Positions 2,981 through 24,792 of a stretch of 29,047 bases of DNA are shown piece after piece. The notes under the pieces were generated by a model, which saw only the letters and a list, made by a program, of their open reading frames with translations, was not told where the DNA came from and ran no database searches. A program made the translations under genes and the position numbers. Source of the DNA: a virus; IMG/VR virus record IMGVR_UViG_3300036846_001176, positions 1-29,047 of that record; one strand, given 5' to 3'. The stretch's first letter is position 1; every line of letters begins with the position of its first letter.

Positions 2981-3159
2981 CAGGGCGGCTCCTGTGCCTC
3001 GGCCAGCAGCCGGCGCGCGAGGTCGCAGAGCACCTTGTTGGTGGCGTCGGTCTCGCCGGTCAGCATGACCCACTCGTTGCGATCGGTGCCGGTCCACATG
3101 CCGCCGCGATGCAGCAGCAGGACGGCGCGGGCGAGGCGCTCGAGGGGCGTCAGCCTCAT
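2980..3159 (-). CDS. hypothetical protein (MRLTPLER...)
   Basis: Coupled start and stop on both sides. Confidence 0.6.
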   Translation of the reverse strand: MRLTPLERLARAVLLLHRGGMWTGTDRNEWVMLTGETDATNKVLCDLARRLLAEAQEPP

Positions 3160-3545
3160 CGCCGGCCCGGCTCGGCTATGTCGCGCTGGCGCTTGTCGGC
3201 GTGGATGGTGCGCCAGACGTCGACCTTCTGCTGGGCGGCGGCGCGCTTGGCCTTGAGTTCCTCGGCCAGCACCTGGGCGTCGTACTGTTCCTCGACCGCC
3301 TTGGCGAAGGCATTCGAGATGCGCGCCTCGGCCTGCCGGCGGGCGTCGCTCTTCTGCGTGCTGACCATCACGCCGGCCGCCTCGATCATCCTGAGCCGGT
3401 AGGCGGCGCGATCGGCGGCGGCGATCGCCACGGCATAGTCGTGCGCGATATGGTCGGCGAACTGCATCGCCTCGTAGCACTCCTCGTCGGTGACGAGGTC
3501 GGTGATCGGCTCGACGTCCCGGTAGCGGGGGGAGCGGGCGCTCAC
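3156..3545 (-). CDS. helical protein, possibly a UvsY-like recombination mediator
   Basis: Coiled-coil character with C-terminal VDVWRT..ADKR; near ssb and the ERF gene (family call is inference). Confidence 0.5.
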   Translation of the reverse strand: MSARSPRYRDVEPITDLVTDEECYEAMQFADHIAHDYAVAIAAADRAAYRLRMIEAAGVMVSTQKSDARRQAEARISNAFAKAVEEQYDAQVLAEELKAKRAAAQQKVDVWRTIHADKRQRDIAEPGRR

Positions 3546-9077: not shown

Positions 9078-9899
9078 TCACAGTCGCTCTGCGATCTCCT
9101 TGATGATGGTGGCGTTGTACCGCCGGACCTCCTGCTCGATCGTGCCGAGGTCAGGGAACATCTGTCGCAACTGACCGATCTGCTGATCGATATGCGCGAC
9201 GAGCTCCGTCTCGCCTTTGGCGGCGAAGCTCTCCCTGACCGTGGTGTGTTCGACCAGGGCCTTGGCGGCAAACGGGCGTAAGATAGCGCGGGGATGCCCC
9301 ATCGGGTCCCGCTCCAGTCCGCTGATCGCCTCGCGGCGGATCGATGTGCAGATGTCCTGGTAGGCAGCATAGAGCCGCCCGCCGGGCTGGATCACATCCT
9401 CATCGGGGATCAGTTTCCAACCGTCCTTTTCACGGTCCTTGACCACCCGTTCCTTGGAGACCCGCTCGATGTCAGCGAGCGTGTCGACCGAGGCCCATTG
9501 GAACACCTCGAGGTATTCCGGCGGGGATCGGTCCAAAAGCATATTTCCTAACGCATGCGCAACTTCTGCGCGGCCGACCATCTCCCCCGGCTTGCCGCCT
9601 CCGAAGGCGATCAAGGCACGTTGGTTGTAGGCGAGCCGCTCGACATCGTGCACGCGTTCGAAATGCCGTTGGTTGGGATCCGTCCGCCAGGCCACGAGGG
9701 GCCCGGCAAGGGCAGCGATCTGGTTATGACCAAGGGGTGCTGAGTGACCGAGCATGCTATGTAAATCTCTAAACATAGCAAGTGCAGGACCAGGGACACC
9801 AAAGCGAGCGCATTCGGCCAGCACTAACTGGAAGAAATCGCTCTGTGTAGCGGACAATGAAAGCGGGTTGCGGAGCATCTGTGCGATGTCCATTGCCAT
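9078..9899 (-). CDS. hypothetical protein (273 aa)
   Basis: Start MAMDIAQ after the leader motif; the ORF-track extension to 10085 runs through an ncRNA. Confidence 0.8.
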   Translation of the reverse strand: MAMDIAQMLRNPLSLSATQSDFFQLVLAECARFGVPGPALAMFRDLHSMLGHSAPLGHNQIAALAGPLVAWRTDPNQRHFERVHDVERLAYNQRALIAFGGGKPGEMVGRAEVAHALGNMLLDRSPPEYLEVFQWASVDTLADIERVSKERVVKDREKDGWKLIPDEDVIQPGGRLYAAYQDICTSIRREAISGLERDPMGHPRAILRPFAAKALVEHTTVRESFAAKGETELVAHIDQQIGQLRQMFPDLGTIEQEVRRYNATIIKEIAERL

Positions 9900-9986
9900 C
9901 GTGTGTCTTTCTGCCCGAGACAGCGGGCTCTCTGCCGACCACCACAATGATGGCCGAAAGACACGGATTACTTGATTGAATGGAGT

Positions 9987-10083
9987 GCAGGACCCGGAGT
10001 GGTACTCCTGGGTCCTGCGTCGCCGGGCCTGCCGCGCCATGCCTTGTTCGGCCGAGCCCTGTCCAGGCTCGCCATGCCCTGAC
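9987..10083 (-). ncRNA. GGC-NN guide-like small RNA B (1 unit, 10 NN)
   Basis: TTGCTT-16-TAGACT promoter (10117-10090), array, GGCA-GGCCCGGC, hairpin 9987-10018. Confidence 0.85.
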
Positions 10084-10125
10084 AAATGCAGTCTAGAGGC
10101 ATGGGCCGTAAAAGCAAGGCCGGCA

Positions 10126-10680
10126 TCAGTCCGGCTCCATAAAGCACCATGCGGGTTGGTCGTCGGGAGCTACGTTCGTGAGCAGGACGCAGCCGCCGAC
10201 ACCGATGGTGCCGTCGTCATCCGCCACGATCCACCTGAATAGAAGCTCGTTAAGTTTCTCCTGAAATTCTTTGTCTTCACGGATCAGTCTGTTAACGATC
10301 TCCATAACTTCAGTCGTGGTCTTGGCTTTGACGTTCAGCCTCAACCTGAGCGGACCGCCCATGTTGAGCTCCATCACGATCTGATAGAGGTGCGGCGCCA
10401 AGTCTTCCGGCGTCATCACCTTCTGCTCGCTCATGCGTTTCCAGTCGACCAGCGTGATGGCCTGGTCGTAGAGCAGTTCGAAGCTCAGATCGTCGTCGCC
10501 CTCGGCAGCCGGCTTGATGATCACCTCGCCGGTGTTCAGACCGACCAGCGTGACCGCCGCCTGCATCGCCGCATTGAGGACCATCGCCGAGTTGTCCTTG
10601 TCGATCCCCATCCGCATCAGGATGTGGTGCTCGACAGGCATCGGCTTGCCCTGGCCATGGCGGTACACCGACATGATCAT
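10126..10680 (-). CDS. hypothetical protein
   Basis: Long ORF, coupled to the upstream gene. Confidence 0.75.
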   Translation of the reverse strand: MIMSVYRHGQGKPMPVEHHILMRMGIDKDNSAMVLNAAMQAAVTLVGLNTGEVIIKPAAEGDDDLSFELLYDQAITLVDWKRMSEQKVMTPEDLAPHLYQIVMELNMGGPLRLRLNVKAKTTTEVMEIVNRLIREDKEFQEKLNELLFRWIVADDDGTIGVGGCVLLTNVAPDDQPAWCFMEPD

Positions 10681-15556: not shown

Positions 15557-16972
15557 ATGTCCGACCGTTCAGACCGAGGCCGCAGCCCCACCGCGCAAGC
15601 CGCCCTCGCCCCCGAAGTCTCGCCCGACGGCGCCCGCATCAACACCCCCACGGGCTGGCTCATCGATGCCGACGGCAATCGGTTCTCCTTGGTCCGCACC
15701 GCCGACAAAGGCATGCAGATCCGCATCAACGCGTTCGTGGATCAGATCACGCAGTACGTCCTCGCCCTGCAGATGCAGGACGGCACCTGCTACCAGGAAA
15801 CCTCGACCTCCGGCTGGTACGTCTACGGCGGCGCGCCAGGCAACTGGACCAGCAGCCCTGCACCCCCCGGCAGTGGCGCTGGGGGTGGCGGCGGTGGTGG
15901 CGGCGGTGGCCCCACCCCGCCAGTCTCCGGCGGCCTCACCGTGCGCAATGGCCGTGTCGTCGACGACAAGGGCAACGACGTGCACCTGCGTGGGCCAAAT
16001 CTCAGGTTCATGAATTGGCCGGACAACCAGAACTCGGTGATGATGCATCCGATCGCCGATCGGCAGCGTTGCCTGCCGGTGCTCGACACCCTGCCCGGCA
16101 TGAACGTCGTCAGGTTCGATGCCTTCGAAAGTATGACCCAGTTCGACGCCGCATCGCCGCAGAACATCATTCCCTACATCGATGCCATCGTGAACAACGG
16201 CGTGTTCTGCGAGGTCGAGTGCCACATCTATCCCACCCTGCTGCAGGGCGGCGACCTCGAGCGCGTCTGCGGCTGGTACTCGCAACTCGCCCGCCACTAC
16301 AAAGACAATCCGAAAGTCATCTGGGGCACGCAGAATGAACCCGGCGGCGGGCCGGATGGTGAAATCAACCGGATCTACGATGCTATCCGAAACGAGGGCA
16401 ATCAGAATTTGATCCTGATGTGCCCGGAAGGCGGATGGTCGTGGTCGAACATGAACCCGGTCAACTACCAGCGCCTGCGCAATGTCGCTTGGGATTTCCA
16501 CTACTACGGCTGGATCCCCAACTATTCCATGGACCCCGCCGTCAACGATCAGGTCCTGCTCGACAACTACAACGGCTCGCTGCGCTTCCAGTCGGCCGAC
16601 GGCAACATCCCGATGTTCGTCGGCGAATTCAGTCCATGCGGCTTCCAGAACTCGAACGCGATTTTCGTGGAAAACGCCTTCTGGATGGACCCCAACGGCC
16701 TCTTGGTCATCGATAGCGTCTACCGCGCGCCGTTCCTCTCGGGTTGGATGCAATGGTTCTGGAATACCCCGGAGACCTCGGCCAGCAACGGGATCGGATT
16801 TTTGCTGAAACCGGATGGCAATTACAACGGCAGCGCCGTTACCGATCACGGCGGCAAGCAGATGGTCGAAGCGCTCCGCCGCGGCTCGCCGGCGGCCGCC
16901 TCGGCTAGCGCCCAAAGCGACGCCAGCGCCGCCGCCGTCGATCAGCGCCAGACCCAGACCAGGGGCCGCTAA
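15557..16972 (+). CDS. glycoside hydrolase family 5-like protein
   Basis: LTVRNGRVVD..G..VHLRGPN, GMNVVR, NEP (acid/base), FHYY, FVGEF (nucleophile); N-terminal domain plus Gly/Pro linker. Confidence 0.85.
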   Translation: MSDRSDRGRSPTAQAALAPEVSPDGARINTPTGWLIDADGNRFSLVRTADKGMQIRINAFVDQITQYVLALQMQDGTCYQETSTSGWYVYGGAPGNWTSSPAPPGSGAGGGGGGGGGGPTPPVSGGLTVRNGRVVDDKGNDVHLRGPNLRFMNWPDNQNSVMMHPIADRQRCLPVLDTLPGMNVVRFDAFESMTQFDAASPQNIIPYIDAIVNNGVFCEVECHIYPTLLQGGDLERVCGWYSQLARHYKDNPKVIWGTQNEPGGGPDGEINRIYDAIRNEGNQNLILMCPEGGWSWSNMNPVNYQRLRNVAWDFHYYGWIPNYSMDPAVNDQVLLDNYNGSLRFQSADGNIPMFVGEFSPCGFQNSNAIFVENAFWMDPNGLLVIDSVYRAPFLSGWMQWFWNTPETSASNGIGFLLKPDGNYNGSAVTDHGGKQMVEALRRGSPAAASASAQSDASAAAVDQRQTQTRGR

Positions 16973-20054: not shown

Positions 20055-20584
20055 TGCTAGGCTCGTCTAGGCATGTCCTGGCTCGGCAAGGCGTGGCAGG
20101 GCAGGCAGCGCACGGCGGGGCTTGGCCCGGCAACGCAGGGCTCGGCATGGCAGGCACGGCTAGGCTCGGCATGTCAGGGCGCGCCTAGGCATGGCGGGGC
20201 AGGCGGGGCTGGGCTCGGCGAGGCACGTCGCGGCGAGGCTGGGCTCGGCAGGCACGGTTAGGCTTGCCACGGCCAGCCGCGGCACGGCACGGCAGGCTAG
20301 GCTCGGCAACGCGAGGCGCGACGAGGCGCGGCATGGCAGGCGAGGCTTGGCGTGGCTAGGCGCGACAGGGCCCGGCACGGCAGGCTAGGCGCGCCAAGGC
20401 AAGGCAGGGCGCGGCGTGCCCAGGCTCGGCTAGGCAAGGCAGGCGCGCCCTGGCACGGCAAGGCGCGGCGCGCCCAGGCTCGGCTAGGCAGGCAAGGCTT
20501 GGCCTGGCACGACGGGGCTGGGCGCGGCATGGCAGGGCACGGCCGGCACAGCGTTTCGGCAACGGTTCACCGGTCCGGAAACGC
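20055..20584 (+). ncRNA. long GGC-NN guide-like array (10 units)
   Basis: Pentamers punctuated by GGCA at 20100, 20149, 20198, 20247, 20291, 20335, 20379, 20438, 20487 and GGCC at 20541; TTGACG at 20020; 3' hairpin containing ACGGTTCACCGG. Confidence 0.9.
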
Positions 20585-20635: not shown

Positions 20636-21337
20636 GAGTTACGGCAGGCACGATGCCTGCCGAGCCATACGGGCGAGATTTTGGGGGTCTCACCGCATGG
20701 CATGGGAATTCGGTTGAGGTTCTGGCGAAGGCCGGGAGGCACTGTATCCTCAAGTCCGGGCGACGCCTCGTCTGCCTGCCGTGAGTTCCCTCACAAGGCA
20801 GAGCCTCTAGCCGCACCGCCCCATCTGGCGACGCCCACAGCCGTGGGCGAAGCTCAAACTGGCAGCCCCCCACAGGCCAAAGGCAGGGGTTGTGTCATTT
20901 GCCTGCCGTGAAGCAGGCGTGGCTTGACGCTGGGAGCGATGCGACATCGAGCAACTCGCCGACTGGATGGGCCAAAAGCGCACCCACCGGCACCACGTGA
21001 CTGGCATCGGTCCCTAGATCACAAGGATAGGGCTCTGCCGGGTGGTCGTGGCATCAGCTTGCTGCGAGCCTGCCCATAGTCGAAGCCGTGGGCAGGGATC
21101 GTTCGAGGGTTTAGGCAGGATGGTGGCAGCCACCCATTAGTGCCTGGTTCGCGCCGCTTAGGCTTGCCACGGCTATGCGAAATTCCTTTTGGTTTCCTCC
21201 CTCGACGGGATCCGATCAAGTCACCGGGCAACCGGGCCCGGAGCATCTTATCGCGGCGAAGGCCGCTATCGCCACTGACGGGAGCGAAGACGTCCGCTTG
21301 ATCACTACGGGACTGATATGGTTATCCGTCCCGCAGT
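20585..21337 (-). ncRNA. candidate large structured ncRNA (about 750 nt)
   Basis: No credible ORF; many stems; TACACT at 21348-21343; strong terminator. Confidence 0.6.
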
Positions 21338-22030: not shown

Positions 22031-22474
22031 TCAGGGTCGTTTTTCGGTCCAGGTCTTGAACTCGCGGAGCTGCTCGGGATCGAGCCAGTCCCAGCGTCCC
22101 TCGAAGCGGATCGCGCGGTCGTCGATCGTCAGGAAGGCGGGAGGTTTCTGGTTGGTAAACTCCAGGAGAATGAGATCTGCCCGGCGTGCGTGCAGCAGCC
22201 GCAGGAACGGTGAAGCTTCGCTCGGAAAATCGGTAATTTGCCAGCCTTCCTGGAAGGCGTGTCCACCGATCCAGACTGCCATTTCTTTGATGCTGTCCGG
22301 GTCTTTCGAGCGTGAGCTGTAAACGACCAGGCGGAAGTGCTTGCCGGCCTTGTGGGCCCAATCGAGAAACCCTGGCGTCACGGTGCCGTAGAGCTCGCCG
22401 TTCTGCCAGCCTCGCTCATAGCTGTGGATTACGCCATCAAAGTCGAGACAGATGACCGGACGATCGCTTGGCAT
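22031..22474 (-). CDS. HAD-superfamily phosphatase-like protein
   Basis: ICLDFDGVIH, YSSR, KPPA..TIDDRA. Confidence 0.85.
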   Translation of the reverse strand: MPSDRPVICLDFDGVIHSYERGWQNGELYGTVTPGFLDWAHKAGKHFRLVVYSSRSKDPDSIKEMAVWIGGHAFQEGWQITDFPSEASPFLRLLHARRADLILLEFTNQKPPAFLTIDDRAIRFEGRWDWLDPEQLREFKTWTEKRP

Positions 22475-22527
22475 GGCGTGGCCTTTCGTGCCGTTGACGG
22501 ACGATGAAAACACTGCACATTATCTTG

Positions 22528-22682
22528 GACCAGGCTCGGCATGGCAAGTTCCGGCTCGGCGTGGCAGGGAGTGGCCCGGCTAGGCACGGCAGGCGTGGCG
22601 GGGCCTGGCTCGTCCGGGCAAGGCACGGCGTGGCGCGGCCGGCACGGCAAGCCCCGCGGCAACGGTTCACCGGCCGCGGGGC
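22528..22682 (+). ncRNA. GGC-NN guide-like small RNA C (2 units, 12 + 9 NN)
   Basis: TTGACG at 22494; GGCA at 22588; GGCC at 22637; hairpin 22651-22682 with ACGGTTCACCGG. Confidence 0.85.
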
Positions 22683-22689
22683 ACCTCCC

Positions 22690-22899
22690 TTAGAACGCTA
22701 GCAGCAGCAACTGCTCGGCGCCGTACACGGAACGTTGGCCACACGCCTCGCACTTGTAGCGCTCGGCATCCGGTTCACAACCTTCCGCGTCGGCGCCGCA
22801 ATCGATGCAAAAACCTGGATTGTCCAGGTCCAGCAAACCTTGCTCAGCCGCCTGCTGGACGCGTTCCTGGGTCAGGCTCGGGTGGAGTTTCAGTGCCAT
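22690..22899 (-). CDS. small zinc-ribbon protein
   Basis: GFCIDCG...EPDA..YKCEACG...VYGAE. Confidence 0.8.
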   Translation of the reverse strand: MALKLHPSLTQERVQQAAEQGLLDLDNPGFCIDCGADAEGCEPDAERYKCEACGQRSVYGAEQLLLLAF

Positions 22900-23002
22900 G
22901 TGGTGGCCTTTCGCCGGAGTACAGCCGGCTCTCTGCCGTGCTGCGTTGGTGCAGCACGAAAGGCGGGTTGACAGCTTTCGTAAATATAGAACATGATGAT
23001 GT

Positions 23003-23105
23003 GTCCTCGCCTGGCGAGGCAAGGCCTGTCCGGGCCAGACGCGGCGCGACTTGGCACGGCGCGGCAGGCTTGAGGAACCCCGCAGCTGTAGCCGCGGGGT
23101 TCTTC
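23003..23105 (+). ncRNA. GGC-NN guide-like small RNA D (1 unit, 12 NN)
   Basis: TTGACA-18-CATGAT (22968-22997), array, GGCA at 23063, hairpin 23072-23105. Confidence 0.85.
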
Positions 23106-23115
23106 GTTTGCGCGG

Positions 23116-23583
23116 TCAGCCGTGAAACGCTGCGTGGCGCAATTTTTCTAACAGACCTTCGGCGATTTGCGCTGTCAGCGCGGGGCATTCGCTGGTGGTC
23201 GCGTTCATGAGCAGCTTGGCCAGGACCTTGGCCTCGACCTCGGTGACCGGGAGCATGGTCGTGAGGTAGACTGGCGGCTCGATGGTGACCTGGCCGGCGA
23301 ACAAATAGTCCTCGGCGCCTGCATCTTCAGGCTTCATGCCTGATGCGTTGTCGAAGCAGTTTTCCAACACGCAATCAGCGGCCTCCGCCAACTCAGGCGA
23401 GAGCTCGATCGAGAGCGGCCAGGTGGCCGTGTCGGTCGCGTTGCCGATCAGTGTCTGGAGGTCATCGAGGTGCAGGGCGCGGTCGGCTTCTCCGTTGTCC
23501 GCCGCGACCTCGCTCATGCCTTCGGCCATGGAGCAGAACACCTTTGCGGCGCGAAGATCGGCGATCGTTAAGCTGTGGCTCAT
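23116..23583 (-). CDS. hypothetical protein (MSHSLT...)
   Basis: ATGA coupling with 23580-23774. Confidence 0.75.
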   Translation of the reverse strand: MSHSLTIADLRAAKVFCSMAEGMSEVAADNGEADRALHLDDLQTLIGNATDTATWPLSIELSPELAEAADCVLENCFDNASGMKPEDAGAEDYLFAGQVTIEPPVYLTTMLPVTEVEAKVLAKLLMNATTSECPALTAQIAEGLLEKLRHAAFHG

Positions 23584-24708: not shown

Positions 24709-24792
24709 GCTATGGCATGGCTTGGCAACGCCGGCCATGGCACGGCAGGGCAGGCATGGCATCCCGCGGCGACGGTTCACCGGCCGCGGGGT
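24709..24792 (+). ncRNA. GGC-NN guide-like small RNA E (1 unit, 7-8 NN)
   Basis: TTGACG-18-TACAAT (24674-24703); GGCA at 24749; hairpin with ACGGTTCACCGG. Confidence 0.8.

Follow-up and report, generated by a model that had tools for sequence, protein, structure and literature searches.

The window, the whole stretch of DNA analyzed here (29,047 nucleotides), covers the opening 29 kb of a virus record of 104.6 kb (G000), referred to below as the genome; the record has repeated ends and a G+C content of 65.7%. All four sequencing runs containing the stretch are soil metagenomes, and no RNA dataset is among the runs listed. Pfam and annotation searches identified genes for a primase-polymerase, AAA, SSB and ERF proteins and a methylase; the phage also carries a glycoside hydrolase family 5 gene at 15557-16972 in the window (Cellulase, PF00150; E 2.9e-16).

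According to the accessible text of two bioRxiv preprints, VIPR systems combine the RAMP protein Vipr with vrRNAs built of GGY/NN units (10.64898/2026.04.26.720920, 10.64898/2026.04.26.720927). In G000, the product of the gene at 31468-32169 (minus strand), about 21 kb from the guide described below, has 1,746 homologues, and the profile of this family matches SUSP1 Vipr (PDB 36pp, E 5.8e-5) over a span that includes the thumb Arg and the G-loop (glycine loop). Judged by this homology, the gene encodes the Vipr protein, and the GGY/NN tracts of the genome are the vrRNAs of a VIPR system. A 168-amino-acid ORF between vipr and the array is a candidate vap; it falls in a PHROG without an assigned function, and neither it nor vipr matches a Pfam nuclease family. 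The relatives compared here are G001, a complete vipr-positive genome (58% of G000 aligns at 72%); G002, which is 89% complete, has L004 as a duplicate and yielded neither vipr nor a guide tract; and X2, a sequencing run belonging to a different study from the probable source, with a relative about 96% identical to our phage, represented by one contig at a depth of 5.5.

The neighboring gene and the guide cassette

The gene at 9078-9899 (minus strand) encodes a protein of 273 amino acids with 29 homologues. This protein has no family in Pfam or PHROGs and no counterpart in annotated phages or the ESM Atlas, and its structural model (pLDDT 89.9) has no fold match in the PDB at E <= 0.001 (Foldseek). 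The gene was also considered as vipr itself, which was ruled out because its product is all-helical and vipr is located elsewhere. Its structured 5' leader (9896-9964, minus strand) is one of 15 same-strand copies of an element with the core GGCAGAGA on the minus strand, which lies directly upstream of minus-strand genes (window positions 2144, 7011, 7322, 7633, 8311, 9001, 9921, 21989, 22922, 23796, 24642, 24816, 25955, 26268 and 27474) and has no copy on the opposite strand genome-wide. This copy folds as a three-way junction around a likely ribosome-binding site (z -2.8). The element contains GGCAG, the motif in which vrRNAs end; G001 and G002 have it as well, and Rfam gave no match to it. 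Because the leader is kept in the guide-free X2 relative, it lies outside the cassette.

The cassette itself spans 9965-10140 and comprises a probable promoter, a guide, a tail and the last codons of the upstream gene. These 176 nt contain no gene or ORF of their own, and an Rfam search of the window returned no match. Guide B (10026-10083, minus strand) is a stand-alone tract of 12 GGY-type triplets, 7 of them GGC and 5 degenerate, like the other tracts of the genome. Its NN pairs, read along the minus strand from 10083 to 10026, are AG AT GA TG AG TC CG AA AT GC, followed by AG. This terminal AG ends most guides of G000 and is probably a boundary motif. With 11 NN pairs, the tract falls within the 9-16 tandem GGY/NN units of vrRNAs and, judged by its composition, is a solo VIPR guide.

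Directly 5' of the guide, a block at 10084-10104 (minus strand) recurs nearly letter for letter in the syntenic cassette of G001, which also supplies the only exact match in viral_contigs. The block is a probable promoter, in which TAGACT would serve as a -10-like hexamer; a sigma-70 scan made no call at these positions. The 3' tail of the vrRNA is a G+C-rich hairpin (9987-10018, minus strand; -27.3 kcal/mol, z -4.0), whose stability was equaled by 1 of 200 shuffles. In G001, the upstream block and the ends of the hairpin stem occupy the identical slot but flank a different guide, so that the structured tail is kept while the NN letters vary, as in vrRNAs; G002 has neither. On the X2 contig, 9964 is joined to 10141 by 74 other letters that replace the cassette; 74 letters are too few for a promoter, a guide and a tail, and the cassette is therefore absent from this relative.

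The guide B footprint and its alleles

When read with a 1-nt skip, guide B matches the plus strand at 9751-9779 in 16 of 20 letters (18 of 22 counting the terminal AG). This is the sole site scoring at least 16 in the 104.6-kb genome, where the next best scores 14; with skips of 0, 2 and 3 nt, the best scores were 14, 13 and 15, respectively. Among 600 order-shuffled guides, 29 reached 16 anywhere in the genome and one did so within 1 kb of the guide. The matched stretch is antisense to codons 41-50 (AMFRDLHSML) of the neighboring gene, and the skipped bases fall at codon position 3. The mismatched pairs are AGA where the guide expects CGN, TTA where it expects CTN and AGC where it expects TCN, all of which are silent relative to the spelling of the guide. 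The genome scan and the codon comparison thus bear out what the preliminary description had reported: a 16/20 match antisense to this peptide, with mismatches only at Arg, Leu and Ser codons. The A+T-richness it had noted also holds, as the 33-nt footprint (9750-9782 on the plus strand, codons 40-50) has a G+C content of 36% versus 61% in the gene; windows of 33 nt this low in G+C make up 1.3% of the gene and 0.26% of the genome. In the 53 genes shared with G001, AGA accounts for 15 of 1,091 Arg codons and TTA for 6 of 1,191 Leu codons, and three of the four TTA codons of the neighboring gene lie outside the footprint.

The four mismatches sit in units 3, 5 and 7 of the guide, and the four tail-proximal units are perfect. 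In the accessible text of the VIPR paper, an 80% match is the threshold for calling a target, and no self-hits of at least 80% are reported in the clades tested (10.64898/2026.04.26.720920). Guide B, in contrast, has one, at 16/20 (80%), so that residual self-binding is possible.

The X2 contig, on which the cassette is absent, carries an allele that matches guide B in 19 of 20 letters (21 of 22 with the terminal AG): its Arg codon is CGC, its Leu codon is CTG and its codon 48 is GCG (Ala). Over 808 covered bases, 23 differences are listed between X2 and our gene. Nine of these fall in the 33-nt footprint, within 9756-9780, as opposed to 14 in the remaining 775 bases (Fisher 5.5e-8, or 2.8e-7 with four unlisted end differences placed outside). 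Differences at codon positions 1 and 2 follow the same pattern, with 4/9 of them inside the footprint (p 2.3e-4); three of these abolish a match to the guide, whereas no new match is created. The changes at 9762, 9777 and 9780 are at wobble positions, should be invisible to the guide and are not needed for escape. Outside the footprint, three of nine changed codons are also silent position-1 swaps of Leu or Arg, so a pattern of silent changes only carries little weight by itself. The amino-acid changes of X2 agree with those of a database protein (P0001), which is possibly not an independent sample.

In X2, G001 and G002, the three close relatives without guide B, the Arg codon is always CGC, and Leu occurs at its position in just one of them, the guide-free X2, as CTG. 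Codon 48 is GCG in X2 and G002 and AGC in G001; none of the three has TCN, and among the 29 homologues this residue is Ala in 24 and Ser in four. The preliminary description had expected CGN, CTN and TCN codons in guide-free relatives and had held that AGA, TTA and AGC there would speak against recoding. The expectation was right for Arg and, in X2, for Leu, and AGA and TTA were not seen in these relatives; it failed for Ser, as no TCN was found and G001 carries AGC. On the codons of these relatives, the Arg and Leu codons of our phage are derived, and these silent changes abolish matches to the guide. For the Ser codon there are two options: a silent swap, starting from a TCN allele that was not seen but is implied by the TC of the guide, or a conservative change from Ala, which relative to the nearest known allele (GCG in X2) adds a second mismatch in that unit. 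The allele of the guide-free G002 matches guide B at 16/20, equal to self. Perfect targets of guide B numbered zero in both viral_contigs and, with 22 letters, metagenome_contigs, in scans that may miss near-identical genomes. The 12 distant metagenome homologues and genome-collection loci scored 0-15 of 22, had no matching cassette and are uninformative on codons.

The syntenic guide of G001 points to the same gene: it spells K-D-G-W-K-A-I-A-D at another site of the neighboring gene, and the own copy of G001 matches it at 16/18; the Lys and Ile that the guide spells, and that most homologues share, are Thr and Val in this copy. As far as sequence matching can tell, the family of 9078-9899 is what guide B is aimed at.

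A second dense patch of X2 differences (10 in 56 nt) lies at 10243-10298 (minus strand) in the upstream gene, 10126-10680. Three residues change within it, and over 23 nt of it the sequence of our phage is that of G001; of the 61 guides tested, which are those of G000 and G001, not one reads it. The patch may be a scar left by a guide that was not seen; as no known guide reads it, dense patches can arise by other routes.

Other guides of this phage and its relatives

GGY/NN periodicity marks two long staggered arrays in G000 (20055-20545 and 30051-30939), together with several tracts that stand alone. The array at 20055-20545 (plus strand) has 10 guides, the last of which best matches its own genome at 20953-20984 (17/22). 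A sister solo guide at 23003-23065 (plus strand) has its best match at 23120-23154 on the minus strand (19/24), where two Leu codons are TTA/TTG and the guide expects CTN; viral_contigs holds no exact target of this guide. For the first guide of a two-guide mini-array at 22528-22641 (plus strand), the best match (22359-22393, 19/24) lies in the neighboring HAD-like gene, and all four mismatched units are amino-acid changes. Among the 40 of 77 rows listed from a read comparison over 22150-23450, which leaves the 23120 target uncovered, the guide at 22528 is retained by the relative in changed form. Among the guides of the vipr-linked array, the first (G000 30882-30939) reads vipr itself at 31766-31797, with 18/22 in self (TTG and TCG as silent swaps) versus 20/22 in the vipr gene of G001.

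At most 1 kb separates a guide from its best own-genome match in 8 of 15 solo or mini-array cases versus 3 of 46 long-array cases in G000 and G001 together (p 1.5e-10 for the former, at 2% chance). Across 79 other vipr loci, near self-matches were found for 4/28 solo versus 3/332 array guides (p 9e-4), and self-matches at any distance (12/360, about 9 expected) were barely above chance. An orthologue of the target was at hand for 11 guides, and eight of these fit a non-self allele more closely: guide B, the first array guide (on the vipr gene of G001), the G001 guides 91319 and 62242, the guides 87416 and 51124, and the L050/L051 pair. For three others (100325, 46753 and 37988), the self allele scores one letter higher than that of the relative. 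Guide 91319 of G001 matches its own copy at 18/22 and the guide-free G000 orthologue at 66735, near which no guide tract was found, at 21/22; two Leu codons of this target are swapped in opposite directions (TTG/CTG). Two related phages, L050 and L051, carry different solo guides in the same place (3032-3089 and 3392-3449, respectively) that read each other's allele of the neighboring gene at one site better than their own (20 versus 17 and 21 versus 20 of 22); for one Arg codon, one phage uses AGA and its counterpart CGA.

Ten of the 11 guide-target pairs examined are wobble-aligned. Their 33 mismatched units comprise 10 silent Leu, Arg or Ser swaps and 23 residue changes; G001 62242, which reads codon positions 2-3, and G000 20491, where the gene is not defined, were left out of this count. 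Relative to the G000-G001 baseline (306/4820), silent swaps are enriched (p 2.5e-5); we give this no weight, because the close-range baseline is 3/9. Evasion through six-codon amino acids, put forward in the preliminary description, therefore describes this locus without being a rule, as 23 of the 33 units change the residue: from these comparisons, silent swaps appear as just one escape route, with amino-acid changes as frequent or more so.

Several features of these tracts were noted in passing. The guide at 62242-62304 of G001 reads codon positions 2-3 of its neighbor at 62502-62536, where the self copy is A+T-rich and the mismatches are mostly ordinary third-position changes. A second slot, marked by G000 99597-100289 and its G001 orthologue, has one guide in G000 and another in G001, each directed at a separate site in the same neighboring gene; the G001 orthologue is A+T-rich at the wobble bases of the site of the G000 guide. 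A common tail motif with the core CGGTTCACCGG closes the arrays and mini-arrays and differs from the simple hairpins of most solo guides; such tails are found at 20546-20570, 22660-22680 and 24760-24780 in the window, near 30030 in G000 and in the G001 arrays. Upstream of several arrays and mini-arrays lies a common AAAAC..GCACAT block that is probably a promoter.

Interpretation and relation to known systems

Guide B spells the neighboring-gene allele of a guide-free sister phage, and the allele of its carrier is changed at the letters that the guide reads. In our judgment, these comparisons make it probable that guide B and the altered allele are a linked weapon-and-shield pair, predicted to silence close kin and to spare the carrier. 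The cassette would be transcribed from its own promoter, and its vrRNA would be loaded in trans by the Vipr of the phage. By analogy with SUSP1 VIPR, the complex would then bind the allele of the relative, which has a single mismatch far from the tail, and block its transcription; targets would be sensitive alleles of co-infecting or resident kin. In the carrier, four mismatches in three alternate units (3, 5 and 7) would weaken self-binding enough. Position-1 swaps at Arg and Leu codons would be the cheapest escape from a guide that skips the wobble base, with amino-acid changes where no such swap is available. The adjacency of guide and target would follow because a guide parted from the immune allele by recombination would attack its carrier; tight linkage alone would keep the two together during recombination among relatives. 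One point against this reading is that it does not account for the payoff of silencing one copy where co-infecting kin share gene products. As a sensitive carrier would suffer from a newly acquired guide, the immune allele may predate it: the allele may have come first, as an escape from the guide of a rival, and guide capture may have followed. The preliminary description had proposed recoding for self-immunity. Its self-avoidance component agrees with our data, and as to which came first, the change in the gene or the arrival of the guide, recoding and escape followed by capture both appear to fit.

Several other readings bear on the same observations. Solo VIPR guides in general might be RNA-only selfish elements, cassettes of about 170 nt that borrow Vipr and spread with a recoded immune allele as a natural RNA-guided "attack-and-rescue" allelic drive, an idea that we hold to be rather doubtful. 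If true, it would imply reciprocal arms races between alleles, and A+T-rich recoded scars would map past guide conflicts. A mechanism for such a drive would be that a Vipr filament blocks or damages replication of the sensitive allele and that repair co-converts the footprint and the cassette ("intronless homing"); this extends the weapon-and-shield explanation and does not compete with it, and we think it unlikely. On the one hand, the distance between guide and target is mostly 70-900 nt, as described for free-standing T4 endonucleases in the accessible text of PMC2988022, the cassette is absent from a relative about 96% identical, different guides in one slot are all aimed at the same neighboring gene, and adjacency would be required for homing and merely helpful for silencing. 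On the other hand, the cassette contains no ORF, the candidate vap has no Pfam nuclease match, SUSP1-type VIPR is reported in the accessible preprint texts to repress and not to cut (10.64898/2026.04.26.720920, 10.64898/2026.10.15.759431), and no conversion tract was mapped.

The footprint could also be a neutral mosaic, in which the patch came with the cassette from a diverged, A+T-richer donor, or drifted once the local gene had served as the template for the guide, and its mismatches are unselected. Such an origin would account for the guide-invisible wobble changes to A or T, for the second dense patch across the cassette with no guide reading it, for the silent position-1 swaps in three of nine changed codons outside the footprint and for the AGC shared with G001. 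It is nevertheless quite improbable, as the patch coincides with the footprint (nine changes within 9756-9780) and only two differences are listed in the 182 nt between footprint and cassette, which leaves no uniformly foreign block; in the second patch, G000 agrees with G001 over 23 nt and the change may be on the X2 side; and reciprocal and opposite-direction swaps occur at other loci. Some CRISPR-derived short guides tune the expression of their own neighboring gene. The partial self-match of guide B could likewise be a working target for autoregulation, a use that adjacency would suit; the self-match is 80%, and the perfect tail-proximal units are those where pairing of vrRNAs starts, according to the accessible text of 10.64898/2026.04.26.720927. 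We judge this very improbable, given that guide B fits the non-self allele more closely, that its mismatches at Arg and Leu are derived, that the footprint lies mid-gene, away from the promoter, that one relative lacks the cassette and that G001 uses another site.

The system of our phage shares with VIPR, as far as the published descriptions are accessible, the pentameric GGY/NN guide, the structured 3' tail, the 1-nt wobble skip, staggered arrays, a putative vipr-vap operon and Vipr homology. It differs from them in the many solo guides located away from vipr, each adjoining the gene that it reads, with self-matches of about 80%. Solo or orphan vrRNAs of SUSP1-family phages and F5 satellites are described in the accessible text of 10.64898/2026.10.15.759431, where, as here, stand-alone guides are directed at relatives, there including their vipr gene, and vrRNA-targeting guides match self less well than non-self. 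Most of those solo guides reside in vipr-null elements, and for the classes vipr and satellite the carrier's own homology covers no target region; our carrier, by contrast, is vipr-positive and has an intact target homologue beside the guide, altered at the letters read. Thus, VIPR, solo guides and lower self-matches have already been published. The accessible literature, including the VIPR preprints 10.64898/2026.04.26.720920, 10.64898/2026.10.15.759431 and 10.64898/2026.10.21.760802, yielded no guide that adjoins an intact, altered homologue of its target and no escape by position-1 synonymous swaps; the supplements of these preprints may list guides with such nearby self-matches.

The layout also resembles that of the free-standing homing endonucleases of phage T4 (seg and mob), which, in the accessible text of PMC2988022, are optional intergenic elements that attack a neighboring gene in element-free relatives (intronless homing, marker exclusion), with targets hundreds of bases from the insertion site; a comparable interference is that by PhiPA3 gp210 (10.1101/2023.09.30.560319, accessible text). 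By sequence, the neighboring gene of element-free relatives is the target here as well and the own allele should be resistant. Unlike homing endonucleases, the cassette would be RNA-guided and has no gene for a site-specific nuclease or any other protein, and silencing is predicted in place of cutting; with no nuclease found, it resembles a free-standing homing endonuclease in layout and is not one. Virus-borne CRISPR mini-arrays are reportedly guide-only cassettes used between related viruses, and they differ from our case in guide code and effector.

The locus would tie VIPR to homing-like competition between alleles of closely related phages, and it bears on the mismatch tolerance of VIPR and on self/non-self discrimination without a PAM. 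In the accessible text of 10.64898/2026.04.26.720920, wobble skipping is proposed to defeat synonymous escape, and the VIPR preprints argue that there is no silent escape; the Arg and Leu position-1 swaps found here are an exception to this proposal and likely give escape, and phages likely use such swaps to aim guides at their own kin. Our phage and the X2 relative form a near-isogenic natural pair, one with the guide and the altered allele and the other with no guide and the matching allele.
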